From IMG/VR virus record IMGVR_UViG_3300049444_000130: a stretch of DNA of 64,000 nt, one strand, 5' to 3'. Origin of the DNA: a virus (taxonomy: Duplodnaviria; Heunggongvirae; Uroviricota; Caudoviricetes). How positions within the stretch are numbered: the stretch's first letter is position 1; each line of letters opens with the position of its first letter. Position numbers and translations under genes: made by a program. Positions 42,095 through 61,529 of this stretch are shown in pieces. A model generated the notes under the pieces. It was not told the origin of the DNA, made no database searches, and was given only the letters and a program-made list of their open reading frames with translations.

Positions 42095-42313
42095 TTACGC
42101 TCCTTCGACGCTGGCTGGCGTGACGGCCAACTCAGGATCAATGTCAATGGCCGCGACGTTCAGTGCCCGGGCAATCTCTTTCAACGTGTCAAGCGGGAGG
42201 GTGGCACTCTGTTCCCAACGCCACACGGTTGCTGGATCAACGCCAAGGGCACGAGCGAACGCAACACGACTGACGCCACGGGCTTCGCGGAGTGCTTTGA
42301 GACAATTGGACAT
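42095..42313 (-). CDS. Cro-like XRE HTH regulator
   Basis: 72 aa: LKALREARGVSRVAFARALGVDPATVWRWEQS. Confidence 0.6.
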   Translation of the reverse strand: MSNCLKALREARGVSRVAFARALGVDPATVWRWEQSATLPLDTLKEIARALNVAAIDIDPELAVTPASVEGA

Positions 42314-42489
42314 CGGGAAACCTCCGTTGCATAGAGTGCAATAACAGAAGCCATTCTACAGGATCATTGCATGCCTTGCAACGTTTTTCCTCACAGAAAT
42401 CTCACTTGCATTGCACATCAAGCAACGGTATATTTGGTAGCATTGCATCATTTACAATGGATATCGTGCAGGGAGGGAATGGACGTCAG
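42314..42489. promoter_or_regulatory. divergent switch region with repeated TTGCA(T)/ATGCAA operator-like half-sites
   Basis: gttgcatagagtgcaat, cattgcatgccttgcaacg, cttgcattgcac and gcattgcatc lie between the divergent XRE genes. Confidence 0.5.
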
Positions 42490-42927
42490 ATGGATGCGAT
42501 TCGCAGGGTGTTTGGGGCGCGGGTACGGACATTGCGGGAAGCAAAAGGATGGGAGTTGGACGATTTAGCTGCACGACTTGGTAAGTCCCGGTCGAGTATG
42601 TCGCGCATCGAAACGGGCAAACAGAATTTAACATTGAGGGCCATTGCGGCCATTGCGACGGCTTTAGATGTGTCGGTCCCTTTCCTCTTTGGCGCTGCTG
42701 AGCCGCTTGTGACACCCCCCGTGGTGGCGGGCATTCTCACGCGAGCCGAGCGTCTGCATACGACCCTGGAACATGCTTTCCAGGATGCAACCGCGTTGAA
42801 AGAAGCGTTAGTCCCTTTCCAAGACCCCCCCCAGTCCAAAGAGCAATATTCAGGCCTGGAAGAATCTGAACTCCTAGACGACTTCTTCGCGGTCGATGCC
42901 TTCACCCGCTGCGTCCTCACCTCCTAG
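42490..42927 (+). CDS. CI-like XRE repressor
   Basis: MDAIRRVFGARVRTLREAKGWELDDLAARLGKSRSSMSRIETGKQNLTL plus a C-terminal domain. The track ORF starts at 42367. Confidence 0.55.
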   Translation: MDAIRRVFGARVRTLREAKGWELDDLAARLGKSRSSMSRIETGKQNLTLRAIAAIATALDVSVPFLFGAAEPLVTPPVVAGILTRAERLHTTLEHAFQDATALKEALVPFQDPPQSKEQYSGLEESELLDDFFAVDAFTRCVLTS

Positions 42928-43109: not shown

Positions 43110-43982
43110 ATGAAGACGTTACCGGATCTCTGTGCCGCCTATCTGGCCGAAACGTTCTTGAATCACGAGCCATCTACGCATTATCAGCAAACGCGCTTTT
43201 TTGCGGGGCTCATCGCCGACCTGGGCGCCCTGCCGCTCCCCGAGGTCACCCCAGACGTGCTGCGGGCTTGGAAGGGCCGGCTGGCCCTGCGGCACAAACC
43301 GGCGACCGTGTACCGCTACATGATGTTTCTGGGGGCCGCCTTGCGCTACGGCGTGGAGTGCGGTTGGCTGGCGAGAGATCCTATGCGCCGTATCCGCAAG
43401 CCCTCGCCGGGGCGCGGTCGGGTGCGTTTTCTGACCACGCCTGAGCGTCAGCGGCTCTTACTCGCCTGCCGGATGAGCCGACAGCCCCTCCTGTATCCCC
43501 TCGTGGTCCTGGCGTTGGCGACGGGCGGCAGGAAAGAAGAGCTGCGACAGCTCCGCTGGCCCGAGGTCGATTTTGCGGCGGGGGTCGTGCGTTTCCTCAA
43601 GACCAAAACCCATGCGCCGCGTAGCGTGCCGCTCGTGGGCGAAGCGCGGACATTGCTGGAGCAGTTGGCCCAGCGGAAACGCCCGGCAGAGGTGTGGGTA
43701 TTTGCGCGGCCAGATGGGCAACAGCCGATTGAGATGGAGAGTGCGTGGCGGACGGCGCGGACGTTGGCCCAGGTGGACCAGTTTCCCTTTCATGCCCTGC
43801 GGCATACGTATGCCTCGTACCTCGCGATGAGTGGGGCCAGTTTGCGGACCATCGCGGAGTTACTGGGGCATGCCAAGATCACCCAAACGATGGTGTATAC
43901 GCATATGTTAGAAAGTCATACAACAGGGGCGGTAGAGAAAATGTATCGATGGTTGCGCGAGAAGGAGGAGCCGGGGCCGTGA
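43110..43982 (+). CDS. int: tyrosine recombinase / phage integrase
   Basis: An N-terminal SAM-like region, then HALRHTYASYLAMSGASLRTIAELLGHAKITQTMVYTHM (the R..H..Y catalytic box). Confidence 0.8.
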   Translation: MKTLPDLCAAYLAETFLNHEPSTHYQQTRFFAGLIADLGALPLPEVTPDVLRAWKGRLALRHKPATVYRYMMFLGAALRYGVECGWLARDPMRRIRKPSPGRGRVRFLTTPERQRLLLACRMSRQPLLYPLVVLALATGGRKEELRQLRWPEVDFAAGVVRFLKTKTHAPRSVPLVGEARTLLEQLAQRKRPAEVWVFARPDGQQPIEMESAWRTARTLAQVDQFPFHALRHTYASYLAMSGASLRTIAELLGHAKITQTMVYTHMLESHTTGAVEKMYRWLREKEEPGP

Positions 43983-44305
43983 CACCCCGGCGTGTGTTAG
44001 TCCGTGCTGGCGACAAAGCGGACAGTAGACAGGCGTTGCGCGAGCTGCCCGAGGGTAAAATGATCCTTGTGCCGCCGCCAGAAACCCGCACAACAGAGCG
44101 GCCGGCGGAGCGGGGAATGATGGCAAATGCGATAGCCGGTAAAGAATTGGGAGCAGTGGGGATCTGCTATCTCGGCTTCCAGGTCGGAGAGATTCAGGGG
44201 CGACTCCGTGCGATAGATGCAGGTCGTACAGGGGGACTGTTGCACGTCGAACATGGGGCGTCCTTTCTGGGGGCCGGGGTATCCCTACCCCGGCGGGGGT
44301 GGTTA

Positions 44306-44632
44306 CTAGCGGCCCCCAGTGGGGTCCCTGTCCTTGGGAAGACACTGATACCGCATGTCCCATAGGCCCAGCGTGCTGGCAGGGACATCGGCAGCGGCAA
44401 ATGTGCCTGCGACATTCCCGGCGGCGTGATCGTGTGCGAGGCGGGTGGTGATGGCCTCCTCACACGCGGCGGCAGTCTCATAGAGGGTGACAATCCCCCA
44501 GGCAGCATGCGGCGTTGGGGCGGGGTCTCCCTCGCAGCGTATGCGGGTATCGGGGAGCGGTGTACAACGCATGGGGAGCGGTTGTTGCCAGAGCACCCAG
44601 GCGCAACTGAGCAGAATGAAGGTGTGGTTCAT
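44306..44632 (-). CDS. secreted/lipoprotein-like hypothetical protein
   Basis: AAGGAG RBS. MNHTFILLSCAWVLW is a signal peptide with a lipobox-like LLSC. Confidence 0.35.
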   Translation of the reverse strand: MNHTFILLSCAWVLWQQPLPMRCTPLPDTRIRCEGDPAPTPHAAWGIVTLYETAAACEEAITTRLAHDHAAGNVAGTFAAADVPASTLGLWDMRYQCLPKDRDPTGGR

Positions 44633-44682
44633 AGGGGCTCCTTGAGAGAAGCCGGGGCGGTGATACCCCGGCAGTGTGGTGG

Positions 44683-44940
44683 TTAGGAGCGCGCGGCGTC
44701 CGCCCGGTCTTCGAGCTCCGCCAGGGATGCATCGCATTGGTCGATGTCAGCCAGCAGCGTCGGGGGCAGGGCGCCCAGTGCGGTACGGGCGGCCCGCACC
44801 GCGAGCACCACGCTCATCATGTCCTGCCAGGTGGTCGCACTCTCGGTATACAGGGTCTCGGCCAGCTCCTCCACATAGCGGAGGGATTCCACGATATCCT
44901 GCCAGCCCTGGTGCAAATCAAGCAACGGAAATTCCGCCAT
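44683..44940 (-). CDS. small hypothetical protein (cassette array)
   Basis: AAGGAG RBS. A hairpin lies upstream. Confidence 0.35.
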   Translation of the reverse strand: MAEFPLLDLHQGWQDIVESLRYVEELAETLYTESATTWQDMMSVVLAVRAARTALGALPPTLLADIDQCDASLAELEDRADAARS

Positions 44941-44997
44941 GGTCGGGCTCCTTGCTGGTGAGTGAAGGGGGGTCTCGCTCCCCCCGGTGATGGTGCG

Positions 44998-45372
44998 TTA
45001 GGGCCGGGCGCCCTCGCGCTGCATGGCCTGCTGCACCGCCTCCCACAGGTGTTGGTGCGCTGCCTCTTCCTCCTCGTGTTCCCGCTGGCGTTCGGCATAG
45101 CACTCGGCTTCCAGCGCGTCCTGGCGCGGATCGTCGGCGTCAACGTTGGTCCAGGTGTTCATCGTGCTCTCCTTCTGGGTGGTGGGGGAGGTGGCTCCCC
45201 CGGGGGTGTGACTGCGTGAGCGGTGGACGATCCTGCGCGTGATACGCACCGTCTGCCCGTCGCTCCGCAGGCGCTGGGCGATCTCTTGGGCGAGCGGGAG
45301 CCCCTGCGTGCGGCAGTGGGTGATCCACCGCACCCCACGCTGGACTTGGATGCGGTACAATCCTGCGGTCAT
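44998..45372 (-). CDS. small hypothetical protein(s); a hairpin/RBS module lies inside the ORF at 45161..45210 with an internal ATG at 45162
   Basis: AAGGAG RBS at 45372. May be two genes. Confidence 0.3.
   Translation of the reverse strand: MTAGLYRIQVQRGVRWITHCRTQGLPLAQEIAQRLRSDGQTVRITRRIVHRSRSHTPGGATSPTTQKESTMNTWTNVDADDPRQDALEAECYAERQREHEEEEAAHQHLWEAVQQAMQREGARP
45161..45210 (-). repeat. hairpin + RBS module copy 1 (GGGGGAGGTGGCTCCCCCGGGGG)
   Basis: About 50 bp, nearly identical to the modules at 46279 and 46561. Confidence 0.7.
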
Positions 45373-45581
45373 TCTCGTTTCTCCTTGTGGGTGAGGGGGA
45401 GGCGGCTGAAGTGGGGGCGTTTTCCGCCCCCCGTCCTGCATCAGGGTATCTCCTCAGTAAGATGGTGTTTCGGCCCTCCATAGGCCCTCGTCAGGGGGGC
45501 GGTCTCAGCCCCCGACACCCTCGCTTCTTGGCCTCCCGACGCGCCCTAGGGTGATGGGGGAGTTGCCTCCCCCGTGTGATG

Positions 45582-45854
45582 TTACGCGCGCAGCATCTCC
45601 CGCGCGCATGCAATGGCCGCGTAGCCATGACGGGCGTCGTCGGCGGCGCGTTGCGTCTCAGCAATATCGCACCGGCCATATAAGAGCAAGTCACTATCTT
45701 TGTAGCTCACCAGGACGGCTTGCCGCTGACCCTCGGGTCGGAACAGGTAGCCCGAGCCACACACCAGCTCGGCGGTGCCGCTGACTTCCTGGCCCTGTAC
45801 CAGGTAACTGGCATAATGCTTGATGGGGGTCACGTTTTGTGCTATCGTGCTCAT
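45582..45854 (-). CDS. small hypothetical protein (cassette array)
   Basis: GGAGAG RBS. Confidence 0.35.
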   Translation of the reverse strand: MSTIAQNVTPIKHYASYLVQGQEVSGTAELVCGSGYLFRPEGQRQAVLVSYKDSDLLLYGRCDIAETQRAADDARHGYAAIACAREMLRA

Positions 45855-46023
45855 GGGTACTCTCCATGCTCCCCGTAGGGAGGGTGTCTGCTGATGTGTG
45901 ATCTGGCCCCACCGCTCTATTGGGGGGAGGTGGGGCCTCTCTCTTCTTCGACTCCGTCTTCCGTCTAGCGTTGGTCCTCAATTCCTTCGTGTTCCTGCAC
46001 CAGACTGGCGCGCAGGGGGATGG

Positions 46024-46281
46024 CTACTCAGCCTCAGCGACCTCTTCCAGCCTACCAATTTGATCCACGAGCTGATACCAGGGCGTGCCCGCGATACACA
46101 GGATGAGGCTATGATCCTCATGCCAGGTCTCAGGCGCCGTTGGGAGAAAGGTTCCTGACCAATCGACAAAATCGGCGCCGTCGGCTTCAATGTTCATGGC
46201 AACGTCCTGCGGATCGAGATGCGTGGTGAAATGCCCGAACAGCGTCCCAGATGCATTAAACAACGGTATGCGTGTTGCCAT
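46024..46281 (-). CDS. small hypothetical protein (cassette array)
   Basis: Conserved module ..GAGGAGAGACGACGATG. Confidence 0.4.
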   Translation of the reverse strand: MATRIPLFNASGTLFGHFTTHLDPQDVAMNIEADGADFVDWSGTFLPTAPETWHEDHSLILCIAGTPWYQLVDQIGRLEEVAEAE

Positions 46282-46333
46282 CGTCGTCTCTCCTCGTAGG
46301 TGTGGGGGAGGCGGCTCCCCCGGGGGTGGTTAG
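46279..46333 (-). repeat. hairpin + RBS module copy 2
   Basis: catcgtcgtctctcctcgtaggtgtgggggaggcggctcccccgggggtg. Confidence 0.75.
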
Positions 46334-46563
46334 GCTATTTCCTGCATCGTCCCCGCTGTGAACCGCGCTTGCATCATCGTGAAGTCCCAGGTCGTCTGGG
46401 GGGCCATCGTCCCAAAACACCGTTGGAGCTCTGTGCGCACGCCGACCAACACTTTTCCGTCCACGCGGCGGATGCGTTCAACCACATAGGTAGTATCCAT
46501 CGGGCCGTCGCCGCGCTTGTAGGGGGTCGCAATCTTCATGCCAACTCTTAGCTTGCTTACCAT
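46330..46563 (-). CDS. small hypothetical protein (cassette array)
   Basis: Conserved module ..GAGGAGAGACGACGATG. Confidence 0.4.
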   Translation of the reverse strand: MVSKLRVGMKIATPYKRGDGPMDTTYVVERIRRVDGKVLVGVRTELQRCFGTMAPQTTWDFTMMQARFTAGTMQEIA

Positions 46564-46612
46564 CGTCGTCTCTCCTCGTAGGTGTGGAGGAGGTGGCTCC
46601 CCCGGGGGTGTG
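46561..46612 (-). repeat. hairpin + RBS module copy 3
   Basis: catcgtcgtctctcctcgtaggtgtggaggaggtggctcccccgggggtg. Confidence 0.75.
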
Positions 46613-46867
46613 CTAGCCGATCCTGCTACCAGTCGCGTGGAGGGCGTTGCTGAACTCGCCCGTGCTAAAGCCTGCCGTGTACACGCGCACCGTCTCCAGC
46701 TTGGCGCGTTTGGCGCGGCGGGTGGGCTTGGCGACTACGGTTTCCCAGTAGCTGCCTGGGCGGGTATCGAGGGCCGGCAACACCGCCTGGGCTTCGGCCA
46801 GGGTCAAGGTCCAGACTTCTTGCTGCAAGGCCAGGTTGCCAGGGTAGGAGGTCGTGTAGGTCGCCAT
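46613..46867 (-). CDS. small hypothetical protein (cassette array)
   Basis: GGGGAGAG RBS. Confidence 0.35.
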   Translation of the reverse strand: MATYTTSYPGNLALQQEVWTLTLAEAQAVLPALDTRPGSYWETVVAKPTRRAKRAKLETVRVYTAGFSTGEFSNALHATGSRIG

Positions 46868-47039
46868 CGCTCTCCCCTTTCGCAGGGTGAAGGTTTCGCC
46901 CTCGGCATGCGCCTGGGCTCGTCAGTGCGGGCACACACCCGCAGACCTTCTCGTCTCTTGGCTCTTCCGCGTCAGGCCCCTACTGCTCGATCACCCGAGC
47001 TAGGTCGTCCTACCCTTCGCGGTGGCACCCGGTCTACCC

Positions 47040-47219
47040 GGTCGCTTTGTATAGTGAGAGTATAGCATCAGAGTTTCTCATATGCAACACTTATTTCCAT
47101 CATGATAGAAAATAAAATGCCGAAATATTTTCTAGATAGTGGGTGAGAATTGTAGTAGACATTTTCTATGGGAAGGGGTACCATTGACTCATTAGTCAAC
47201 ACTTCTCTCTGAGGATGGG
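47040..47219. promoter_or_regulatory. AT-rich promoter/operator island with the perfect palindrome TTGACTCATTAGTCAA about 30 bp upstream of the XRE gene
   Basis: A local GC drop in a 65% GC background. The inverted repeat lies at ~47183..47198. Confidence 0.5.
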
Positions 47220-47498
47220 ATGAGCGAAAAGGAGACGATGGGGGATCGTATCAAGAAGTGGCGCTTGAAGAAAGGCTGGAGTCAGCGCGAACTTGCCCGG
47301 GCAACCCGACTCGATGTCTCGTGGATCAGTCGCCTTGAAAGTGATGAGCGGGCCAATATTTCGTTAGACGGTGCCCGGCGGATTTGTGAGGCCCTGGGGA
47401 TCTCGTTGGATTATTTGGCAGGGCGCTATGACACCGAGGGCAACCCTGTGGCCGCTACGGCGGACAGTGTGGAAGCTGCGACCGCCGTAGCAGGATAG
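47220..47498 (+). CDS. XRE-family HTH transcriptional regulator
   Basis: IKKWRLKKGWSQRELARATRLDVSWISRLESDERANISL. Confidence 0.6.
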   Translation: MSEKETMGDRIKKWRLKKGWSQRELARATRLDVSWISRLESDERANISLDGARRICEALGISLDYLAGRYDTEGNPVAATADSVEAATAVAG

Positions 47499-47686
47499 AG
47501 GCTGTGCTCAACCAAGCCTCCTGGCTATTGTAGCATGACGAGCAAGGGGAGGAAATGGCTTCTCACGGTGCAGGAGTTCTGCCCCCCGGGGTAGGTGCGC
47601 GAGAGAGACGACCCACCCCGGCAGGCGAGCGCGTGCACCACACACGCACCGGAGCCCGAGTGTAGCACACGGGAGGAGGAAAGACG

Positions 47687-47968
47687 ATGCCGCGACCCCC
47701 TGATGGCCTGACCAAAGCCCAGCGTGACGAAGCCCGCTTACGGCAGCAGCTCGCGGCCGTGCAGGCGGAGCGGGCCGCTAAACTCACCCAAACCGCACGG
47801 CTTGAAGCCCAACTGCGGCGTCTCGCCCGCGAGCAACGCGGCACCCTTCAGGCCGAGGTGGGGAAACTGGCGGACGCCGCCGGGCTATTGGCCTTCGATC
47901 TGCCGACCCTAGAGAAGGCGTTTGCGCGGCTGGCGGAGGCGTTGGGGAGCGGCGAGGGAACGGCATGA
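47687..47968 (+). CDS. coiled-coil hypothetical protein
   Basis: 93 aa, Ala/Leu/Gln-rich. Confidence 0.35.
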   Translation: MPRPPDGLTKAQRDEARLRQQLAAVQAERAAKLTQTARLEAQLRRLAREQRGTLQAEVGKLADAAGLLAFDLPTLEKAFARLAEALGSGEGTA

Positions 47969-48363
47969 AAAGCATCCTGTGTGGGGGGCGCGATGCTCCA
48001 CCATTCACCCCAGCCGAGACGGCGTGGCTCGATGCCTTTGCGGTCGAGCATGCGCTGTCGCTCGTGGTCGAAGGCGGGGCGCCTGGCGTGGAGACCTACG
48101 GGAGAGTGTGGGCACAGCGCCGGGGTATTGAGGTCGTCACGTTTTGGGCGAATGGGGTGGCCTGGGGCTGCGAGGCAGAGCGCAAACGGAACCGCCGCAT
48201 GCTCGATTATCTGATGCTCGAAGGACTGTCTGTGGGGGAGGCGGTGAGCGTCATCGCCTTCCCGGGAGGGAGCGGGACGGCGCAGATGTGTCTGCTCGCG
48301 GAGCGCGCCCATGTGCAGGTCTTGAGGCGGCTGGCGCCAGTGAGGACGGGCGAGGCGAAGTGA
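47965..48363 (+). CDS. DUF2493/SLOG-family protein
   Basis: ILCGGRDAP...VVEGGAPGVETYGRVWAQRRGIEVVTFWANG...ERKRNRRML...VIAFPGGSGT matches the DUF2493 pattern (GSR..HGGA.GAD...A...G..V..F.A.W...G..AG..RN..M). Confidence 0.45.
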   Translation: MKSILCGGRDAPPFTPAETAWLDAFAVEHALSLVVEGGAPGVETYGRVWAQRRGIEVVTFWANGVAWGCEAERKRNRRMLDYLMLEGLSVGEAVSVIAFPGGSGTAQMCLLAERAHVQVLRRLAPVRTGEAK

Positions 48364-48485
48364 GGGGCGTTGTGGCAGCCTCTGGCAGTGCTGCTGTGGC
48401 CGGATCGCAGAGCTTCTCCAGCCTTCGCAGTACGAATGACGGGGAGGGGAAAGATGGCGACGCGGCTCTCTGGAGGGACAACGAC

Positions 48486-48749
48486 ATGAGCGCCTACCAA
48501 CTACGCACCCCGGCCTTTACCTGTCTCGTCGTCACCGACCTGGACACGGCGACGGGCCAGGAGATGGTCCTGCGGGAGAGTGCCCCCATTGTGCGGTGGG
48601 CGCATGGCAAACCGCTCACCCCGTTGCGGCGCTGGTGTGAGACGAAATGGCCAGGAAAGGTCGAGTGGGTCGCCCTGGAGAATGCCCAGGGCGAGGGGAG
48701 AGGGGAACTATTTGAGCCCGTTAGGTATTTCTCTCACGAGAAACACTGA
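48486..48749 (+). CDS. hypothetical protein
   Basis: GGAGGG RBS. 87 aa. Confidence 0.3.
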   Translation: MSAYQLRTPAFTCLVVTDLDTATGQEMVLRESAPIVRWAHGKPLTPLRRWCETKWPGKVEWVALENAQGEGRGELFEPVRYFSHEKH

Positions 48750-48765
48750 GCAATAAGGCGGGGAA

Positions 48766-49059
48766 ATGGCCCTCTACCATGTCAATGCCAGTGTGATTAC
48801 CAAAGGGAAAAGCCCGGGGGGAGGGAGTCGCTCCGCTGGCGCGTGGTGCAGGGGTGGGTACTGCCGGTGCAGGCGCCCCAGGTGGTGGTCACGCCGAAAA
48901 GGGGGAAGTGATGCCAGAGACGCCTTGGTATGTAGAAATGACGTGGTGGGAGTGGGGTCCTATCGGGGCCATGACCCTGGGGCCATTGGTAGGCTTCTGG
49001 CTCGTGGACTGGCTCAAGAAACGTCGGGAACGTTCGGCGAGGGGGAAGTGATGGAGTAG
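48766..49059 (+). pseudogene. remnant of MobA/MobL-family relaxase N-terminus
   Basis: MALYHVNASVITKGKS matches the MAIYHxxxKxxSRSxG relaxase start. Similarity is lost after a CCCGGGGGGAGGGAG tract (48811..48825). The ORF stops at 97 aa. Confidence 0.35.
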
Positions 49060-49214
49060 AACGGGAAGCAATTTCCCTCGGATGAGTGGCTTGCCTCGCC
49101 AGAACTGAAGAAGCTCAAGCGGGCGATTTCTGCGAGCGGGCGCGACAAGCTTCCCCTCGCTCGAAATAGGTATGACGGGGAGGGGAGGTGGCTACGCTGG
49201 TAAAGGAAGACGGG

Positions 49215-49745
49215 ATGAAAGACAACACGAGAAACCCCATGCTTTCAAGGAGAATCGCTATGACACGTGTATGGGTCATGGCCCTATTGGGAAGTGCTCT
49301 TGTCGGGGCGAGTATCGGACCAGGCGCGGTGCTGCACGCCTCGACCGTCCAGGGGACGGCGGTGCAAATCACGGGCTTGGACGATCTCAATGCGACGGTG
49401 GACCAACAGGCCCGCAAAGGCAGTGGCAAGATTCTGGCCACGGCGCTCGGCGTGGGCGGGCTGATCACGATCGGCGCCGGCCATCACTACCTGGGCGCCG
49501 CTGGCGTTGGGGCGGGCTTAGGCACGGCATTCATTCCCGGCATGATGTCGAGTGCCTTTGATGCGGCCCCTGCGGCCACCAGTCTCGCCGTCGAGCATGT
49601 CGCCTCCGGGGCCTGGTGGGCGCCGCTGACGGCCCTCCTGTACCCCCTGTTCCTGGCCCTGCGCCTGTTGCAAGACCCCGTGGTACTCGCGGCGGGCGTG
49701 CTGGCCCTGGTCCTGGTACGGACCCGAGGTGCCTATGTGGGCTGA
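49215..49745 (+). CDS. traA: conjugative pilin precursor (TraA/VirB2-like)
   Basis: Long leader, then two hydrophobic segments (ATALGVGGLITIGAG...; WWAPLTALLYPLFLALRLL). First gene of the tra operon. Confidence 0.45.
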   Translation: MKDNTRNPMLSRRIAMTRVWVMALLGSALVGASIGPGAVLHASTVQGTAVQITGLDDLNATVDQQARKGSGKILATALGVGGLITIGAGHHYLGAAGVGAGLGTAFIPGMMSSAFDAAPAATSLAVEHVASGAWWAPLTALLYPLFLALRLLQDPVVLAAGVLALVLVRTRGAYVG

Positions 49746-50010
49746 GTGCCCGCGCGTGTTGGATGTCCCGGTGAAAATCCTTGGCTTTGAAATAGAGGAT
49801 TTTGCCGCCGTGGCCGTGTCCCCCCTCTTCCTGAGCTTCGCCTGTGACGCCATGCTGAGCTTTGCCCTGGCTGGGGCGCTCGGTGCGGCGGTGTATCTGT
49901 CGAAGCGGGGACGTCCACAAGGCGCGTTGCTCCATACGCTCCACGCCCTCGAACTGCTGAAGCTCCCAGGGGTCCTGGGACCACGAGAGAAAAGGTATTC
50001 AGCGTGGTAG
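49729..50010 (+). CDS. traL: TraL (VirB3-like) T4SS protein
   Basis: KILGFEIEDFAAVAVSPLFL...YLSKRGRPQGALLHTLHALELLKLPGVLGP parallels F TraL ...MKRRKPGLHHLLHLLYRLGLG.... Confidence 0.55.
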   Translation: MPMWAECPRVLDVPVKILGFEIEDFAAVAVSPLFLSFACDAMLSFALAGALGAAVYLSKRGRPQGALLHTLHALELLKLPGVLGPREKRYSAW

Positions 50011-50603
50011 CACCTCCACAGACCCCGCATGACTTCTATGGCCATCTCCAGGCTCGCAATAGCCGCCTGGAAGCCACGTGCCTTGTCTTGAGCCTGGCCG
50101 TCTTGGCGCTCGGGGGGCTGATCGCCTGGTACGTTGTCCGCGGCGTGCCGGTGCACTTCGTTCCCCCCGGGGGGCCGGGCCTATCGCAGCCGGGAGTCAT
50201 CCCCGACGACAGTGCCACGGCCTTCACCAGTCGCTGGCTGGCCGCGCGCTATACGTTCACGCCCGCGACGGTCAAGACGATGCACAACGCCATGCTCTCA
50301 ACACTCCATCCTGTCCTGAGTCTCCCGTTCAAAGCCCAGGCGGAGCGGGAGGCGGTGCTGGTGAAAGAGGCGCAGCTCAGTAGCCAACTCGTGGTGGTCA
50401 GCACCAGCGTCAGCCGGCCTGGTGGCGTCGTGCTGGTGGACCTGGACGCACGGCGGACCATCTGGATCGGTGGGCAGCAGACGCGGGACGAGCCCGTGCA
50501 TGCGACCATCGCCGTCGCCCCCTGGGTGGTGCATGGGGATCCGAAAGGATTGGTGGTCTCTCGGGTGGTCATTACCCCGACGTTGAGCGTCTCGGGACCC
50601 TAG
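50004..50603 (+). CDS. traE: TraE (VirB5/8-like) T4SS protein
   Basis: N-terminal TM followed by a periplasmic domain. F-type gene order. Confidence 0.45.
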   Translation: MVAPPQTPHDFYGHLQARNSRLEATCLVLSLAVLALGGLIAWYVVRGVPVHFVPPGGPGLSQPGVIPDDSATAFTSRWLAARYTFTPATVKTMHNAMLSTLHPVLSLPFKAQAEREAVLVKEAQLSSQLVVVSTSVSRPGGVVLVDLDARRTIWIGGQQTRDEPVHATIAVAPWVVHGDPKGLVVSRVVITPTLSVSGP

Positions 50604-50627
50604 CCCGAGCGTATTGCTCTCGCCACT

Positions 50628-51365
50628 GTGCGAGGTATGGAGTGGTCGATGCGTGGTCCTGTGGTCGCTCTCCTTCTCCTGCTGGTCCTTGCTCCTCGCG
50701 CCTATGCGGCCCGTACGGCGTCCACGGACCAACCCGTGGCGGTGCGCCTCGAAGTCGCGCAACCCACTGCGATCGCCCTCCCTGAGCCGGTGGCCAGTGT
50801 GAGTGTGGGCATAGAGCCGACGCGTTTCAGTCTCGACTACGACGGCCCGTATCTCTTCCTGCTCCCCCTTGATCCCACGGTCAGCGGTCGCCTGTTTATC
50901 GTCGGGCAGTCCGGCAAGCTGTACACCGTGCTCTTTAAGGTGGCGTCCCCTGCCGATGATGTGGTCGCGCTGGTCACGTCCGTGCCAGGCCCAGCCAAAG
51001 CGCCACCCTTCTCGACCGCCTCCTTCCTGCGGGCCTTACGCACGGGCACGGTGATCCCTGGGCAAGGGACCGAGGACCTCCCCGCACCCACCATGCCCGA
51101 CAGTCGTCTCACACTCCTGAGCACGGCGACCGTGCGTCTGGGGGCACAGCTTGGCCAGGTCCTCACCGTGAAGAATACCGATCTGCAGCCCCTCCTGGTG
51201 GATGTCCGGGTCGGGCACCAGGACGTCCATCACGAGGCCGGCACGATCGCGCTGAACACCTGGGCCTTCCCCCCGCGCCTGACGATTAAAGCGGTGGCGA
51301 CGGAGCCGGAAACCCTGGCCCCGGGCACCGAAGGCCGGGTGTATCTGATCTACGAGAGGCGGTGA
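50628..51365 (+). CDS. traK: TraK (VirB9-like) T4SS protein
   Basis: Signal peptide. Position in the F-like order. Confidence 0.45.
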   Translation: MRGMEWSMRGPVVALLLLLVLAPRAYAARTASTDQPVAVRLEVAQPTAIALPEPVASVSVGIEPTRFSLDYDGPYLFLLPLDPTVSGRLFIVGQSGKLYTVLFKVASPADDVVALVTSVPGPAKAPPFSTASFLRALRTGTVIPGQGTEDLPAPTMPDSRLTLLSTATVRLGAQLGQVLTVKNTDLQPLLVDVRVGHQDVHHEAGTIALNTWAFPPRLTIKAVATEPETLAPGTEGRVYLIYERR

Positions 51366-52582
51366 CCATGCCCACGTTTCTGACGCAGCTCCTGGCCTCG
51401 ATCCGCCGCCGTCCGCTCATCGCCCTGCTAGGCAGTGGCCTGGTCGGCTGGCTGGTGTGGGCGCAGATGACCCCCACGCTGCCGGTGTCCCGGGCCGCCG
51501 TGGCCAAGACGCCAGCGATCCCCGGCCTGGGGATCGAGCGCGCGACGATGGAGAAGACGTTACTCGACGTGCAGAAAGATAATGCGCAGCTTCAGGAACG
51601 GCTCAAAGAGCAGGAGCGCACGGTGCACACCATGCAGCAAGCGCAGGCGGGGGATGCGCGGGAACGACAGGCCGCGGCGCAAGCGCAGGAACAAAAGCTC
51701 GAAGAGATTCTGAAGCGGGCGCAACAACTTCCCAAGCCCACGCCCCAGCCGGTGCGGGTGGTCACGAAAACCCCGCTCCCGGCTGCGAAGAGTGCGCCGG
51801 TGGCGGCAGACCCGCCGGTGCCCCACGACGCGGGGGTGAAGGTCCGCATTCTGCGCAGCGACAAAGCCGCCTCGTTCGCTGGCCCTCCGCCTGCCGCGAA
51901 CCGAGGGGACGTGGCGTATCTGCCGGCGGGCAGTTTTGCCCACGCCCGGGTGATAACCGGCGCCATTGCCACCAGTCGGGCCGGGGGCGCCCTTCCAGTG
52001 CTGTTCAGTGCCGTGGGACCCTTCCAGCCGCCGTGGCAGCTCCAAGGGCCAGGCGTCTTCCCCGTCCGCACCGAGATGCCGGCGCAAGGATGTTTCGTGT
52101 TGGGCAAGGCGCAGGCGGACCTCGGGGCCAACCGCGTGCTCGTGCAGGTGGACCTGCTGTCGTGTGTCATGCCGGACGCGGCGACGTTTGAAGTGCCGAT
52201 CCGGGGGTATGTGGTGGACGTCGATGGTTCTCTGGGCATGGTCGGGCGCCTCGAAACCCACGACAGTGCCGTGCTCGCCAAAACCTTTCTCACGAGCCTC
52301 CTGGCGGGCGCGGCAGAGAGTTTCAAGCTGGCCAAGCAGAGCAGTATCACCACGCCCCTCGGGGGGACGATCACGACACAACAGGGCCAATACGGCGAGG
52401 CCGCAGGCTTTGCGGCCCTGGCCAACGCCAGCGCACAACTGAGTCAATTCTACCTGAGCCAGGCCAGCCAACTGCTGCCCACGCTGGCGCTCGATGCTGG
52501 CCAAGCGGCGCGCGTGGTGCTCCAAGAAGGGGTGTCCTTTGACGGCTTTCCCCTGACCACCACTCTTGTGAAAGGACGCTAA
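51362..52582 (+). CDS. traB: TraB (VirB10-like) T4SS protein
   Basis: N-terminal TM, a Pro-rich coiled-coil linker and a C-terminal beta domain. Overlaps its neighbours by 4 nt. Confidence 0.5.
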   Translation: MTMPTFLTQLLASIRRRPLIALLGSGLVGWLVWAQMTPTLPVSRAAVAKTPAIPGLGIERATMEKTLLDVQKDNAQLQERLKEQERTVHTMQQAQAGDARERQAAAQAQEQKLEEILKRAQQLPKPTPQPVRVVTKTPLPAAKSAPVAADPPVPHDAGVKVRILRSDKAASFAGPPPAANRGDVAYLPAGSFAHARVITGAIATSRAGGALPVLFSAVGPFQPPWQLQGPGVFPVRTEMPAQGCFVLGKAQADLGANRVLVQVDLLSCVMPDAATFEVPIRGYVVDVDGSLGMVGRLETHDSAVLAKTFLTSLLAGAAESFKLAKQSSITTPLGGTITTQQGQYGEAAGFAALANASAQLSQFYLSQASQLLPTLALDAGQAARVVLQEGVSFDGFPLTTTLVKGR

Positions 52583-52584
52583 CG

Positions 52585-53025
52585 ATGCGCTACCGTTTTT
52601 TCCTCCTGCCTGTGGCCCTGGGCATACTCACCGCCTGTGCCCCGATGGGCCTCGGGCCGGAAGTCGATCTCACGACGCTCGCCACGCCTGATCCCCTGCC
52701 GCCGCCGCCTCGGGCGCTCCCGCCCTCCCTGCCAGGTCCCACCCCGGGCGCGGACCAGTGGCGCGCCTGGGTGCCACCCGAGGTCACGGCTCACGGCGAT
52801 ACGATCGACGGCCATTTCCTCCTGATCAGTCGCACGCCTCCCCCGCTCGAAACCCTCGAACCCAGTGCGCCGATCCCTCGCGCGCCCAAAGTGCACCTCA
52901 GTGCGAAGCCCAAGCCGCCTCCGCCGCTCGCCGTCCCGGCACCACCGCTCAGCCCAGCCCGCCCGCTGTCGGGCGGTCGCGCCTCCCCCGGCCCGCTGAC
53001 GCTCCCCACGCTGGGAGGGCCGTAA
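52585..53025 (+). CDS. traV: TraV-like lipoprotein
   Basis: MRYRFFLLPVALGILTAC lipobox. Pro-rich. Confidence 0.5.
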   Translation: MRYRFFLLPVALGILTACAPMGLGPEVDLTTLATPDPLPPPPRALPPSLPGPTPGADQWRAWVPPEVTAHGDTIDGHFLLISRTPPPLETLEPSAPIPRAPKVHLSAKPKPPPPLAVPAPPLSPARPLSGGRASPGPLTLPTLGGP

Positions 53026-53026
53026 C

Positions 53027-55576
53027 ATGGTGGCGTGGACCCGGCGGGATTTCGAGGATGCCGATCCTTTTAGTGCATTGCTGCCCCATGGCCTGATCCT
53101 CGAAGAGACGGAGGGCACGGTCTTACTGTCCACGCCACGCTGGGGGCGCCCCGGTCTCGCGGTCGGCGGTGCCTGGGCGGTGGAACCACGCAATATCGAG
53201 GTGTGTGATGAGGCGGTGTGTCTGGACATGGCCCGGGCGCATGACAGCCTGTTACGCAGTCTGCCCCTGGGCAGTGCCCTGCAGGTACTGATGACGATCG
53301 CCCCGACGTGTGAGGTCCCGGGCTGGGAACGTCTCCGCGCGTCTGTGCGTCCTGCTGGCTGGCTGGCGCCGATCCTGGACGCACAGGGGACAGCCCTGGC
53401 GCAAGGTTTCCCCCATCACGACGGCGCCGCGCCTGGCCGCTTGCGGACCATTCGTACCCTCGTCACCTTCCGTCTGCCGGTCGGCGCTCTGGCGCCCAGT
53501 ATTCCCTTACTCCTCGACGCGCTGCTGAGCCTCCCCAGTCGCCAGAGTCAGGGACTGGCGGGCCGTATGCGGGCGGCCCTCGCGGAGACCGTCACCCAGC
53601 TTGGGGGCTATCGGGCCGGGATTGCGGAGACCCTGCGCGCGGCAGGCCATCAGGTCACCGCCCTCGATGGGGCCGGAGTGGGGCAGGCCCTCGCGGCGGC
53701 GCTCGATCCCTTGGGCGATATCCCCAGTGCGCTGGATGATGCCGTGCCGCTCAAGGAACAGGTCCTGACGCACGACGCCACCCGGCAGACCGGGGGCTGG
53801 ACGTTTGGCCAGGGGGAGACGGCCCTGACGGCCCGGGTGCTCTCCCTGCATCGCGCGCCGCCGCGCACCTATCCGGGCATGCTCAGTGCCCCACGGGCTC
53901 CCGAGGGCGCGCAACCCCTGGCCCTGTGGGACGCCTGGCCGGGAGCACTGACCCTCTGCGTGAACGTGGCGGTGATTGATCAGGGCAAAGAGCGGGATCG
54001 GCTGCGGTGGAAGCGGCACTTTGCGGTGCTCCAGGGCAAGAGCCTGGAGAATGCGGCGATTAAAGACGAACTCGATGGCCTCTTGCGCACGTTCTTTGTG
54101 AGTGGGGGCCACCTCTTCTGGACCCGTATCCACTGCGTGCTGTGGGGCGCAAACCCGCCGCGCCTCGCCCGGGGGGTGCAGGATGTCATTCGGGTAGGCC
54201 GGCGGCTCGACCTGGAGTGGGTGCCCGAGCCCACCCTCGGGAGTACGTTGTTCCTGCAAACGCTCCCGCTCGGGTTTGATCCCACCTGGCCCAGCGAGAA
54301 GACGTTGCGCCGTGAACGGCGGATTCCCGGTATCCATGTGGCGAATCTGTTGCCGCTCTATGGCGGGTTTCGGGGGACACCGACGGCGAGCGTCCTCTAC
54401 TTGAATCAGCGCGGGGAGAGCGTGGGGTTTGATCCGTTCGACAATGTCACCAATCCCCATATGGTGATCACCGGGATGAGTGGCGCGGGGAAGAGCTTCA
54501 CCGTCGGCCATCTGGCGCAACAGGTGTTGCCGCTGGGCGCCTCGATGGTGATTCTCGATCGCTTACCCAGCTACCAGGACTTGTGCGCGGTGTGGGACGG
54601 CACGTATCTCGCCATGAACTTTCAGATGCCCTTGTGTTTTAATCCCTTCTATGGTCCGCTCGATGCCGAGCATGTGGCCTTCCTGACTGCCGTGCTGGCC
54701 GAACTCGCCAGCGGGGGCACCGAACGGTTGAACCGCGAGGCCCTGAATGTGTTAGCGGATGCCGTGGCGTACTTTGCGCAGCGTTGGGAGCCGGCACGGG
54801 GGGAGCCACGGCTGGGCGTGTTTGTCGAGGAGGTGCTCCAGGATGGCGCCTTCAGTGCCAAGGATGCCCTGGCACGGCGGCTTGGGAAGTCGTTGGCCCG
54901 GAAATTGAGCATGTTTCACTCGCGCGGACCGTTTGCGGGCTTCTTTGATGGCCCCAACCAGCTCGCCCTGCACCCCACGCTGACCGTGGTCGAACTCTCC
55001 CAGCTCCGGGATGCGCCCGACTTGCAAGGCGGGCTGCTCTTCTGCCTTTTGCACTTACTCAAGGTGCATTTTGCCGCGCCAGAACGCCTGCATCAACGCA
55101 AGTTTTTCGTGAGTGACGAGACCTGGAGCTTGCTCAAACACCCCGCGACGGCGGAAGTCATTGAAGAAATTGCCCGGACGTATCGCAAGCTGCGGACGAG
55201 TGCGATCTTCCTCAGCCAGTATGCGGAGGACTTCAGCTCACCGGCGGGTCGCGTCATTCGGAAAGGCAGCCCGGTCACCCTCTTCCTCCAACAGGAACAG
55301 GAAGAACTGGCGGAGCTGACGGCGTTGCTCAAACTCTCGCCCGCCGAGCACGCTCTGCTCACGCAGGTGGGGCGTCATGCGGGCTGGAGTACCATGTATC
55401 TGCGCCTCCCGGCTCACACAGGGGGGCTCGTGCGGCTGATCCCGGATCGGTATACGGCGCTGCTGCTCGGGCAAGATGACCAGACCCGACGGCGGCGGGA
55501 TGCCGCGCTCGCCCAGACGGGTGGCAATATGCGAGCGGCGATGGCCCTGCTGCTGGCGGAGGAGCGCGATGCGTGA
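53027..55576 (+). CDS. traC: TraC (VirB4-family) T4SS ATPase
   Basis: 849 aa. Walker A VITGMSGAGKSF. Size and position match F TraC. Confidence 0.75.
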   Translation: MVAWTRRDFEDADPFSALLPHGLILEETEGTVLLSTPRWGRPGLAVGGAWAVEPRNIEVCDEAVCLDMARAHDSLLRSLPLGSALQVLMTIAPTCEVPGWERLRASVRPAGWLAPILDAQGTALAQGFPHHDGAAPGRLRTIRTLVTFRLPVGALAPSIPLLLDALLSLPSRQSQGLAGRMRAALAETVTQLGGYRAGIAETLRAAGHQVTALDGAGVGQALAAALDPLGDIPSALDDAVPLKEQVLTHDATRQTGGWTFGQGETALTARVLSLHRAPPRTYPGMLSAPRAPEGAQPLALWDAWPGALTLCVNVAVIDQGKERDRLRWKRHFAVLQGKSLENAAIKDELDGLLRTFFVSGGHLFWTRIHCVLWGANPPRLARGVQDVIRVGRRLDLEWVPEPTLGSTLFLQTLPLGFDPTWPSEKTLRRERRIPGIHVANLLPLYGGFRGTPTASVLYLNQRGESVGFDPFDNVTNPHMVITGMSGAGKSFTVGHLAQQVLPLGASMVILDRLPSYQDLCAVWDGTYLAMNFQMPLCFNPFYGPLDAEHVAFLTAVLAELASGGTERLNREALNVLADAVAYFAQRWEPARGEPRLGVFVEEVLQDGAFSAKDALARRLGKSLARKLSMFHSRGPFAGFFDGPNQLALHPTLTVVELSQLRDAPDLQGGLLFCLLHLLKVHFAAPERLHQRKFFVSDETWSLLKHPATAEVIEEIARTYRKLRTSAIFLSQYAEDFSSPAGRVIRKGSPVTLFLQQEQEELAELTALLKLSPAEHALLTQVGRHAGWSTMYLRLPAHTGGLVRLIPDRYTALLLGQDDQTRRRRDAALAQTGGNMRAAMALLLAEERDA

Positions 55577-56042
55577 TCCGCAGCCCGTCAAGGCGTTGTT
55601 CCTGCTGACGGTCCTCGCGGGCGTCGGCCTGGCCGCGTGGTGGGTGATCGGCCTGACGGCCAGCGAGCGGCTGGGGCACCTGGCGGCAGTGATGGTCCGG
55701 GAACACGTACCGACCGTCCCTCCCGAGGGGCTGTGGGAGCAGGCGGTGTGGCTTGTGACGCACCGCCTGACGCAACTCCAGGGCATGACGGGGGTGCTGC
55801 TCGTGGCGGTGCTGGGGGGGAGCGGGGAAGGGATCGCACGACGGCGGGTGGATGTCCTCGGGGGGTTCCTCTTGCGCCTCTGGACGGTCGGGGTCGTGGG
55901 GCTGGCCCTGCTCCCGGGCGCGGTGGCGGGGTATCTCCTGGCACCCTGGCCGCTGCCCGCGCGGGCAGCGGCCGGTGGCCTAGCAGGGCTGGTGGCCGTG
56001 AGTAGCTATGGCGTGGGAGCGGGAAGGCCATATGTACCCTAA
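55569..56042 (+). CDS. polytopic membrane protein (tra operon)
   Basis: ATG overlaps the traC stop. Four or more hydrophobic helices. Confidence 0.4.
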   Translation: MRDPQPVKALFLLTVLAGVGLAAWWVIGLTASERLGHLAAVMVREHVPTVPPEGLWEQAVWLVTHRLTQLQGMTGVLLVAVLGGSGEGIARRRVDVLGGFLLRLWTVGVVGLALLPGAVAGYLLAPWPLPARAAAGGLAGLVAVSSYGVGAGRPYVP

Positions 56043-56063
56043 GAATGTGAGAAGGGAGGAACC

Positions 56064-56288
56064 ATGACGTTTGAAGGCAAACACTTTACGCCAGACGAAT
56101 GGGACGTCTCGCCCGAGCGCAAGAAGCTGATGAGACAGCTCTGGGGGGCTCGGGTGGGCATGGGGGTGTGCTGGACTGCTATGAGCGGGCTCCTGCTGCT
56201 CGGCCCACGGCCCTGGAAGGAAAAGATCGCCTTGTGGATACTGGGAACCGTCTTGATGGTGTTTCCGTGGGGAGGGTACCGTCGATGA
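56064..56288 (+). CDS. small membrane protein
   Basis: 74 aa with two TM helices. Confidence 0.35.
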   Translation: MTFEGKHFTPDEWDVSPERKKLMRQLWGARVGMGVCWTAMSGLLLLGPRPWKEKIALWILGTVLMVFPWGGYRR

Positions 56289-56545
56289 CCACCCGCGAAT
56301 TGCTTGTTGACATGATCCAAGACCCACGCGTGCTCACCGAACGCGAAATTGACACGCTCTGGCGGCTCATCAACAATCCGTTTCAAGCGTTTGCGCTCCT
56401 TGCCCTCGTGAATGATGCTGACATCCGGGCCATTCATTGGGTGGCCCAGGCGCTTATCTCTTGTCCTGAGTTGCGCCCCTTTGCCCAGGGCTTGCAGGAT
56501 GGCATCCAACGGTATCTGCAAGCGCGCGCTGGGGGCGCTTCTTAG
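56285..56545 (+). CDS. small hypothetical protein
   Basis: ATGA overlap with the upstream gene. 86 aa. Confidence 0.3.
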   Translation: MTTRELLVDMIQDPRVLTEREIDTLWRLINNPFQAFALLALVNDADIRAIHWVAQALISCPELRPFAQGLQDGIQRYLQARAGGAS

Positions 56546-56557
56546 CGAAAGGCATGT

Positions 56558-57823: not shown

Positions 57824-57864
57824 CACGTTATATTTGAAGCATTTATGTTGAATTGAGTGGGGGA

Positions 57865-57942
57865 AAATGGTAGAATAACGGGGTAGGGAGGAGCTGTAAC
57901 TCCTCCCGCCCCTAAACACACGCCTCTGAGAAGGAGAAGCGC
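57865..57942 (+). repeat. conserved HNH-cassette leader: AT-rich box + 13-bp-stem hairpin GGGGTAGGGAGGAG..CTCCTCCCGCCCC + GAAGGAG RBS (copy 1)
   Basis: About 80% identical to 61641..61720. Confidence 0.7.
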
Positions 57943-58563: not shown

Positions 58564-58565
58564 CG

Positions 58566-60026: not shown

Positions 60027-60027
60027 G

Positions 60028-60219
60028 ATGCATCCTGTGGTGGCGAAGGTGGTGTTATGCAGTCCGATGCTGGCCCTCTTTGGGCTGGTGCTCGGGCTCT
60101 CGTGTCTCTTTCTGCGGACGTGCCCGGCCTGTAAGCGGCGGATTGCCCGCACGGCGACGAAGTGTCATTGGTGTCATACGTTGCAACCAGTGAGGGCACA
60201 GCGGGATCATGCCTTTTAA
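60028..60219 (+). CDS. small membrane protein with CxxC..CxxC zinc ribbon
   Basis: MHPVVAKVVLCSPMLALFGLVLGLSCLFLRTCPACKRRIARTATKCHWCH. Confidence 0.3.
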   Translation: MHPVVAKVVLCSPMLALFGLVLGLSCLFLRTCPACKRRIARTATKCHWCHTLQPVRAQRDHAF

Positions 60220-61519: not shown

Positions 61520-61529
61520 GGAGAGGTGT

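Follow-up and report, generated by a model that had tools for sequence, protein, structure and literature searches.

What function do repeated hairpins serve when each is followed by a ribosome-binding site (RBS) and a string of them separates the small genes of a virus? The question is raised by IMG/VR record IMGVR_UViG_3300049444_000130 (Caudoviricetes), whose 64,000 nucleotides were analyzed at full length and are referred to here as the window. Between a block of type IV secretion system (T4SS) and XRE-family regulator genes and an integrase gene, the window carries a small-gene array at 43970-47087 on the - strand. The array consists of eight or nine tiny genes, depending on whether E-F is counted as one open reading frame (ORF) or two. 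A preliminary description of this DNA had reported six small - strand ORFs. All six are present within 44683-46920 (77-124 amino acids), but the array runs on beyond them, with further genes at 44306-44632 and 43997-44254, as far as the integrase stop codon.

We favor the view, with moderate confidence, that the array, carried on an integrative mobile element, is a repressor-controlled operon of hypervariable small accessory genes whose RNA is punctuated by hairpins and ribozymes, and whose linkers double as joints for cassette exchange. Two hammerhead ribozymes and a structured leader were added to the preliminary description by our analysis, and the hammerheads are the demonstrable processing elements of the locus.

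Hairpin and ribosome-binding-site linkers

The spacers of the array are built alike. The stop codon is followed by 5-12 nt rich in C and A, then by a stem and by 6-13 nt with little G; a Shine-Dalgarno (SD) sequence comes next, 4-7 nt before the ATG. The stems contain 6-9 GC pairs with 4-8-nt loops, and all spacers fold into a GC stem-loop. The pattern CCCCCGGGGGAGCCRCCTCCYCCAC has exactly three matches in the window, all on the - strand and all within the array (45182-45206, 46302-46326 and 46584-46608), and none in shuffled sequences, in agreement with the three modules of about 50 bp first reported. Their likeness is uneven. Within a 54-nt repeat family, the copies at 46557-46610 and 46275-46328 (the modules beginning at 46561 and 46279) are 94% identical, but the copy at 45155-45208 (the module beginning at 45161) has diverged to 61%; a partial fourth copy at 45366-45419 is 72% identical. 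The genes and linkers are given below in the order of the - strand.

46613..46867, - strand: gene A, 84 amino acids; the only array gene conserved in relatives
46561..46612, - strand: module copy 1, reading TAG, CACACCCCC, hairpin, ACACCUAC, GAGGAGAG, ACGACG, ATG; its hairpin (46586-46603) is GGGGGAG-CCAC-CUCCUCC with one G.U pair
46330..46563, - strand: gene B, 77 amino acids; flanked by the two 94%-identical direct module copies
46279..46329, - strand: module copy 2; hairpin at 46304-46321, GGGGGAG-CCGC-CUCCCCC
46024..46281, - strand: gene C, 85 amino acids; four distant small homologues
45905-45937, - strand: C/D hairpin of 9 bp with a 15-nt loop, GGCCCCACC...GGUGGGGCC
45582..45854, - strand: gene D, 90 amino acids, from the ORF list
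45556..45573, - strand: post-D hairpin GGGGGAG-GCAA-CUCCCCC, 8 nt past the D stop; followed by a hammerhead (HH2) and no RBS; folding z-score -3.9
45413-45431, - strand: pre-E hairpin GGGGGCG-GAAAA-CGCCCCC, with the partial module copy and the gene E RBS (45366..45431)
44998..45372, - strand: genes E-F, a single 124-amino-acid ORF with an internal F start at 45162
45160-45215, - strand: module copy 3, inside the E-F ORF; hairpin at 45184-45201, RBS, ATG at 45160-45162
44967..44985, - strand: post-F hairpin GGGGGG-7-CCCCCC, 12 nt past the F stop, then the G RBS
44683..44940, - strand: gene G, 85 amino acids, from the ORF list
44651..44672, - strand: post-G hairpin GCCGGGG-8-CCCCGGC, 10 nt past the G stop, then the H RBS
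44306..44632, - strand: gene H, 108 amino acids, from the ORF list
44273..44294, - strand: post-H hairpin GCCGGGGUA-GGGA-UACCCCGGC, past the H stop, then the I RBS
43997..44254, - strand: gene I, 85 amino acids, Cys-rich; weak DUF6283 match (Pfam E 0.0015, below cut-off)
43970..43991, no strand: terminal hairpin GCCGGGG-8-CCCCGGC, common to the array and the integrase gene where the two converge

The variant hairpins reported previously do exist, but at shifted coordinates: 45413-45431, not ~45395, and 44967-44985. Five more (45556-45573, 44651-44672, 44273-44294, 43970-43991 and 45905-45937) had gone unlisted. It had also been proposed that a hairpin fronts each gene. An RBS does follow most of the hairpins, but the hairpin tracks the upstream stop more closely than the next start. 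A perfect GC hairpin of at least 6 bp that starts no more than 15 nt past the stop codon is found at 6 of the 8 array genes (7 of 8 if one G.U pair is allowed) and at 0 of the 50 other genes in the window (hypergeometric p ~7e-7). Post-stop hairpins also occur after D and I, where no RBS follows, and the A, D and E starts, which have no stop codon directly before them, have no hairpin at the usual distance. Thus, the hairpin belongs to the 3' end of the cistron. The RBS half is an ordinary strong SD and start context; a metagenome scan with ACGANGGAGNNACGACGATGG matched more than 120 unrelated true gene starts.

Relatives of the locus, which were found through homologues of the XRE protein and gene A, have linkers of the same plan. 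The linkers of each relative have their own hairpin, always 5-12 nt past the stop:

L189: GGGCCGC-loop-GCGGCCC, 4 copies
L025: GGGGGC-6-GCCCCC, 2 copies
L191: UGCGCCC-UUCG-GGGCGCA, 3 copies
L200: GGGCGCUC-4-GGGCGCCC, 4 copies, with a sense-strand U.G pair in every copy

The interior non-Watson-Crick pairs that we identified are all G.U on the sense strand. An automatic hairpin finder returned three G.U and two A.C pairs, and both A.C cases are optional outer extensions of the stem. The position and structure of the hairpin are therefore kept while its sequence differs, and wobble pairs are confined to the sense strand, and both points favor a role at the level of RNA over one as a DNA operator. 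One of the L189 copies (7447-7540, +) carries a 57-nt loop insertion with both arms intact.

The module had no match in Rfam at E-values up to 5, whether to pistol, hatchet, twister or any small RNA family. Its CUACGAGG resembles the hammerhead core CUGACGAGG less one G, and from this likeness the linkers might be decayed ribozymes. The C/D spacer (45855..46023, -) is unusually long, at about 175 nt, and contains a purine-rich stretch, GAAGACGGAGUCGAAGAAGAGAGAGG, in addition to the 45905-45937 hairpin (z -2.6); neither a ribozyme core nor an Rfam match was found in it. Outside the array, the only other hairpin and RBS unit in the window lies in the T4SS block at 57879-57950 (+). This site has a sub-threshold Rfam match to an R1162-like plasmid antisense RNA (41.9 bits; gathering score 55) and consists of the hairpin GGGAGGAG-CUGUAA-CUCCUCCC, an A/C-rich linker, an RBS and the ATG of a 206-amino-acid ORF (57943-58563), with AT-rich promoter-like sequence before it.

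Hammerhead ribozymes and a structured leader

A permissive Rfam scan, in which the hammerhead model RF00008 has a gathering score of 48.5 bits, returned two type III hammerheads in the array and no further hammerhead in the window. Together with the sequence upstream of the first, they comprise:

46944..47046, - strand: structured 5' leader of 103 nt, upstream of HH1 and ending at its cleavage site
46888..46951, - strand: HH1, type III hammerhead in the 5' untranslated region (UTR) of the first gene; RF00008 39.7 bits
45462..45521, - strand: HH2, type III hammerhead mid-operon, between D and E; RF00008 33.4 bits

The E-values of HH1 and HH2 are 2e-6 and 1.4e-4 for a 3.5-kb search and 4e-5 and 2.5e-3 for the whole window. 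Both have intact cores (GUC, CUGACGA and GAAAC) and are found by a descriptor search, and the minimum-energy fold of each is a three-way junction. Cleavage is predicted after C46944 in HH1, 14 nt upstream of the gene A SD, and after C45514 in HH2.

To the two hammerheads we added those of relatives, giving seven hammerhead or hammerhead-like copies from six loci, of which four meet the descriptor and the L196, L199 and L189 copies are irregular. Across this set, stems I and III are 93% paired, and 9 of 12 pairs have changes on both sides. The covariation score of 0.82, compared with 0.27 in shuffles, was reached by none of 500 shuffles. A hammerhead or hammerhead-like sequence occupies the HH1 position in relatives, canonical in L200 and near-canonical in L024/25.

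The leader is conserved in L196, L199 and L200. A four-way alignment predicts 25 pairs in it, of which 7 show compensatory changes, and it matches no Rfam family. Cleavage by HH1 would free these 103 nt as a separate RNA. A relaxed scan of viral contigs with the leader core returned only chance matches in an AT-rich phage gene.

Another ribozyme class may stand at the head of one related array. In L193, a twister-P1 candidate at 2520-2588 (+) immediately precedes the first gene in an array with a gene A homologue; its score of 35.7 bits (E 1.5e-5 in 2 kb) does not reach the gathering score of 67.2. The next spacer (2753-2821, +) repeats the 3' half of the twister (GUCAGCACAAAC.CAGAG..CACC) behind a hairpin, which suggests that linkers can arise by duplication of the head sequence. 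At the array head of this relative, one class of ribozyme appears to have taken the place of the other. Bacterial hammerheads are known to lie near integrases and to flank genes in prophage operons (PMC3088659), and hammerhead and twister occur in common gene contexts for reasons that are unknown (PMC6765202).

Control region, relatives and cassette exchange

The array is framed by a divergent regulator gene and a convergent integrase gene. The operator-like palindrome and the promoter listed here were read from the sequence:

47220..47498, + strand: XRE-family helix-turn-helix (HTH) regulator, divergent from the array; Pfam HTH_3 E 1e-13
47184..47199, no strand: palindrome TTGACTAATGAGTCAA in an AT-rich divergent control region
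47059..47087, - strand: putative array promoter, TTGCAT-17 nt-TATACT
43110..43982, + strand: Xer-like tyrosine recombinase (integrase), convergent with the array; Pfam Phage_integrase E 4e-28

Homologues of the XRE regulator are in the same divergent position in L024/25, L189 and L196, and the regulator presumably represses the array promoter. The palindrome, which is unrelated in sequence to the module hairpins, is a candidate operator. A TTGCAT...TATACT-like pair occurs at the equivalent place in L025, L189, L194, L196 and L199; our consensus promoter scan missed the pair in the window, whose -35 hexamer matches at 3 of 6 positions.

The plan of the locus recurs in L189/L190. There, T4SS genes and a divergent XRE gene accompany a leader that contains a hammerhead-like element, a homologue of gene A and seven small genes, and the integrase is again convergent. 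Identity of L189 to the window is 42% for XRE, 46% for the integrase and 68% for gene A; the remaining genes are unrelated. As judged from such comparisons, the relatives keep the putative XRE repressor, promoter, leader, ribozyme, small-gene array and convergent integrase, with array genes that almost all differ.

Gene A defines a small family of 18 sequences (17 homologues found) that are 58-76% identical and have an invariant G-N...W...G..W...T-A-F motif. Its confident AlphaFold2 model (pLDDT 87.6) has a beta-beta-alpha-alpha-beta-alpha fold for which Foldseek gave no significant match in PDB or BFVD. Gene B is an ORFan, finding only itself among 5.8 billion proteins. Searches of every array protein against Pfam, PHROGs and NCBIfam found only the weak DUF6283 match of gene I, and no nuclease or RNA-binding domain in any of the proteins. 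The array DNA had no blastn match among 50,697 phage records.

Where the module core occurs elsewhere was addressed with the pattern CCCGGGGGAGNNNNCTCCNCCAC. In 596 Gb of representative genomes there were 31 scattered single matches, of which one was followed by an RBS and start, and the module was multi-copy in none of 185,579 representative genomes, a set that does not include the host genome. Viral contigs gave 19 matches at 15 loci, and 17 of the 19 were then followed by an RBS and start codon. These 15 loci represent about five sequence families, and the association of hairpin and RBS holds in three. This distribution indicates that the module is not REP-like (repetitive extragenic palindromic) but a feature of mobile elements; a generic repeat of that type was what the preliminary description had named as its own refutation, and the module is likewise absent from the rest of the window. 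In one AT-rich phage family (L010, L012, L017 and L022), a single CCCGGGGGAG-GNRA-CUCCCCCAC hairpin, with loops GAAA and GCAA, follows an AT-rich promoter-like stretch and lies directly before the RBS of one conserved gene (MPSTDI...). The same stem thus serves as a 5'-UTR hairpin in a very different genome.

Comparison of relatives showed where array genes are exchanged. DNA homology between the window and L194 begins shortly before gene A, spans the gene and the A/B module, and reaches as far as the ATG of the following gene, which is unrelated. In an unrelated phage family (L011, L013, L014, L015, L019, L020 and L021), which has up to seven copies of GGGGAGAUUUCUCCCC plus RBS with a GGGGGAG/CTCCCCC stem, single small genes are present or absent in L013 compared with L011, L019 and L020, and the junctions fall inside modules. 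A single module of L011 aligns to two of L013, which is the mark of recombination between copies of the module. Homology in the aligned sequences breaks exactly at modules, whether the window is compared with its close relative L194 or the unrelated phages with each other. The proposal that these are modular cassettes with a common hairpin and translation-initiation region is borne out by the unrelated small genes that relatives carry within a retained architecture and by the module breakpoints of L194 and L011/L013, the latter with single-gene insertions and deletions bounded by module copies.

Gene A is the second gene of the L194 array. Before it, at 360-440 (+), the first 13 nt of the leader (AGCGACCGCGCAC) are joined to the last part of the hammerhead (GCGAAAACCUUU), which looks like a deletion remnant of the leader and ribozyme head.

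Two gene assignments in the array allow more than one reading. No stop codon separates E from F, and module 3 lies in frame within the 124-amino-acid ORF, with AGT at the stop position where module 1 has TAG; both the 124-amino-acid fusion and a separately initiated 54-amino-acid F are possible. An in-frame ATG at 45441, with its own SD, would lengthen E to 147 amino acids through the 45413-45431 hairpin. In place of gene I, a metagenome gene caller chose a 128-amino-acid ORF on the other strand (43979-44365, +), antisense to I and H, which overlaps the integrase stop by 4 nt. We favor gene I on the - strand because of its composition and weak DUF6283 match.

The window as a whole is composite, with a phage-like part (1-43000) beside a conjugation-type block (47220-64000), and the array and integrase are placed at their junction. 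The phage-like part encodes a tape-measure protein (482-3352), beta-helix tail fibers, DNA methylases, Bro-N and a cro/cI-like divergent pair (42095-42927). The conjugation-type block encodes TrbI, a TraC/VirB4-like protein with at most 27% identity to plasmid homologues, and TraU. The array of the window could belong to either part; in L189, the array accompanies the T4SS block.

Proposed operation, alternatives and known systems

In the punctuated operon that we favor, transcription would start at the conserved TTGCAT/TATACT promoter and then cross the 103-nt leader. HH1 would remove the leader, and the mRNA would then open with a 5'-OH and the ribozyme stems, 14 nt before the gene A RBS; HH2 would make a second cut between D and E. 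We infer self-cleavage in vivo, and the 5'-OH on the downstream fragment, from standard hammerhead chemistry. Each cistron would close with a 6-9-bp GC stem-loop 5-12 nt past its stop, beyond which a G-poor single-stranded linker would lead to a strong SD for the next gene. By analogy, the most likely function of the stem-loops is to impede 3'-to-5' decay of the upstream cistron and to insulate adjacent initiation regions structurally, and each small cistron would be independently stable and translated wherever it is placed. The order at D, where the hairpin is followed after 33 nt by HH2, would leave a protected 3' end before the cut and a structured 5' end after it, which fits the logic of punctuation. 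Within one element, the repeated linker would supply short homology for gene gain, loss and replacement, presumably by recombination between linkers.

Several findings weigh against this model. Both hammerheads score below the gathering threshold, and stem II of HH2 is imperfect, with one mismatch or bulge. In relatives, stem II is irregular in L189 and L196 and the core has a U4-to-C change in L199, so that cleavage across the family is not guaranteed. Folding z-scores of the spacers relative to dinucleotide shuffles are modest (-0.05 to -3.9). In the minimum-energy fold of module 1 the 3' arm of the hairpin pairs with the SD instead, which hints at a translational role. Hairpins are scarce or missing in the gene A arrays of L193 and L026 and are thus not obligatory. 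Additionally, hairpins that are homogeneous within an element could also reflect recognition by a specific protein, and terminator rules that rely on a T-run may not hold in the host.

The preliminary description suggested a shared terminator or RNA-processing hairpin. If the hairpins were leaky, U-tract-independent terminators or attenuators, expression would fall along the operon; this is unlikely. GC-rich stem-loops do stand directly past stops, the position of the last one (43970-43991) between convergent genes would suit a bidirectional terminator, and a host of 62% GC might use terminators without a T-run. However, a terminator scan of the array found no T-run after any - strand hairpin (the sequences that follow read ACACCUAC, AUCACCC, UUCACUC and CCCCAG), and a consensus scan found no promoter-like site on the - strand inside the array, whose spacers are GC-rich and about 50 nt long. 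Without promoters there, efficient termination would silence seven of eight genes, and transcription has to continue across the E-F module, which is internal to an ORF. The terminator claim is therefore not upheld. A specific factor might instead recognize the hairpins, either an RNA-binding or processing protein acting with Cas6/Csy4-like logic or a stoperator-like DNA repressor. We consider this improbable. The homogeneity of hairpins within an element and their differences between elements are as expected for a co-evolving binding partner, and the CCCCCGGGGG palindrome overlaps the stem. Nevertheless, several stems (GGGGGAG, GGGGGCG, GGGGGG and GCCGGGG) occupy equivalent positions in one element and their loops vary, the interior G.U pairs amount to A.C mismatches in duplex DNA symmetry, the candidate operator TTGACTAATGAGTCAA is unrelated to the hairpins, and the array proteins lack a detectable nuclease or RNA-binding domain.

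We give a similarly low probability to the linkers being mere footprints of cassette acquisition, left by duplication or homologous exchange and without an RNA function beyond the RBS. Homology breakpoints do coincide with modules, duplication as a source of linkers is suggested by the L193 spacer with its second copy of the ribozyme's 3' half, and the RBS half is a generic start context. Footprints alone do not account for a stem-loop at a fixed distance past stops, with quite different sequences, in at least six element lineages, for G.U wobbles on the sense strand only, or for hairpins after D and I, where no downstream cassette follows. Very improbable is a translational switch, in which an anti-SD-like 3' arm (CACCUCC, CUCCUC) would pair with either the 5' arm or the SD and ribosome traffic over the upstream stop would decide between them. 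The module 1 fold pairs CUCCUC with GAGGAG, and the hairpin start, 5-12 nt past the stop, is inside the footprint of a terminating ribosome. Yet modules 2 and 3 keep the hairpin fold with the SD free, and the anti-SD-like sequence is present only in GGGGGAG-type stems and not in the GCCGGGG, GGGCCGC, TGCGCCC or GGGCGCUC stems. It is barely credible, finally, that the module is one of the generic REP-like repeats of the host or an attC site of the integron type. A repeated palindrome in intergenic spacers beside a tyrosine recombinase would be expected of either, but there is no other copy in the 64 kb, the matches in representative genomes are scattered and single, and the integrase reaches only 58.5 and 38 bits with integron-integrase models whose cut-offs are 265 and 435 and is convergent with the array, not divergent.

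Known elements were also compared with the hairpins and rejected one by one. An attC site has imperfect arms of 57-141 bp, and the stems here are perfect and 6-9 bp long; attC core motifs were not systematically searched. REP elements and their mosaic assemblies (BIME) do not fit a module with a single locus in the window and no multi-copy genome in the set given above. Canonical Rho-independent terminators are not supported, given the missing T-runs on the - strand. The stoperators of Cluster A mycobacteriophages were set aside, as the control-region palindrome differs from the hairpins, which are symmetric. ACCA follows the stem in one module only, unlike an RNase P minihelix (7-bp stem plus ACCA), and the stems are too short for RNase III sites. 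Lambda boxB/nut sites do not correspond either: the loops are not conserved and boxA is absent.

The punctuated operon may be part of something wider. As a speculative extension, which we think rather unlikely to hold, the locus would be one instance of a portable cassette platform in several integrative-element lineages, with a head unit of promoter, structured leader and self-cleaving ribozyme, element-specific linkers and a convergent integrase: a recombinase-independent counterpart of integrons, with the leader a new class of regulatory RNA. If so, any small gene placed between two linkers would form an RNA unit in its own right, stable and translatable, and would be exchanged through the linkers. 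The leader would be a cis-acting or ribozyme-released regulatory RNA, and hammerhead and twister would have the role of marking out 5' ends and segments in accessory operons that are hypervariable and possibly anti-defense. The conserved leader and the apparent interchange of hammerhead and twister at array heads are the most promising leads. A ribozyme at a fixed place at the head of a hypervariable operon, with a leader before it and regular hairpins after it, makes a tractable case for the question of ribozyme context, and the L193 twister candidate makes the idea that ribozymes define mRNA ends in cassette operons directly testable. The linker also illustrates how elements other than T4-type phages can shuffle ORFan genes and keep them expressed, which is relevant to finding anti-defense or host-takeover genes.

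Like the type III hammerheads of bacteria (PMC3088659), HH1 and HH2 have an intact core and three stems, are intergenic and lie a few nucleotides before an RBS, near an integrase and an HTH regulator, with a block of small genes flanked by two or more ribozymes. They differ in that HH1 is fused to a covarying 103-nt leader outside described RNA families, in their sub-gathering scores, and in being combined with a regular series of plain hairpin and RBS linkers. The twister candidate at the head of the L193 array matches the known common contexts of hammerhead and twister (PMC6765202).

For the linkers, the nearest counterparts are the promoter/early stem-loops (PeSLs) of T4-type phages (PMC2839356, PMC4122927), which are likewise short repeated stem-loop cassettes flanking small ORFan genes in hypervariable regions, with insertions, deletions and replacements between relatives bounded by the cassettes. 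Each PeSL contains a strong promoter of the sigma-70 type and terminates transcription effectively (PMC2839356, PMC4122927). In contrast, the modules here have no promoter and no T-run but an RBS, and occur in temperate or integrative elements of GC-rich hosts. The start-associated sequences (SAS) of Cluster K mycobacteriophages are repeated, contain an RBS and lie just upstream of the starts of non-structural genes; half have an inverted repeat further upstream. All SAS share a single orientation, the host genome lacks them, and no function is known for them (PMC3203893). The inverted repeats (ESAS) are imperfect and 17 bp long, and their authors found no support for RNA pairing (PMC3203893). 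Our modules are like SAS and ESAS in position and in being restricted to non-structural genes. However, the stems here are perfect, covary between elements and have sense-strand G.U pairs, and the conserved part is the post-stop hairpin rather than a 13-mer at the start. The SAS consensus GGGATAGGAGCCC (13 bp, 3-7 bp before starts) has one two-mismatch match in the window, at 29701, which is below chance.

Intercistronic hairpins that stabilize mRNA or serve as processing sites include REP in malEFG, those of the puf and pap operons and the early RNase III sites of T7, and synthetic insulators include RiboJ (a hammerhead and a hairpin before an RBS) and Csy4 sites. The common logic is that a structured element uncouples the stability and translation of neighboring genes. 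Unlike REP, the modules here are not chromosome-wide, and no processing enzyme was identified for the plain hairpins. The ribozyme directly upstream of an RBS is RiboJ-like, giving a defined, structured 5' end. Thus, the hammerheads belong to a known kind of ribozyme, the linker system is a novel variant resembling PeSLs and SAS, and the locus can be viewed as a naturally occurring parallel to engineered insulators of the RiboJ and Csy4 type.

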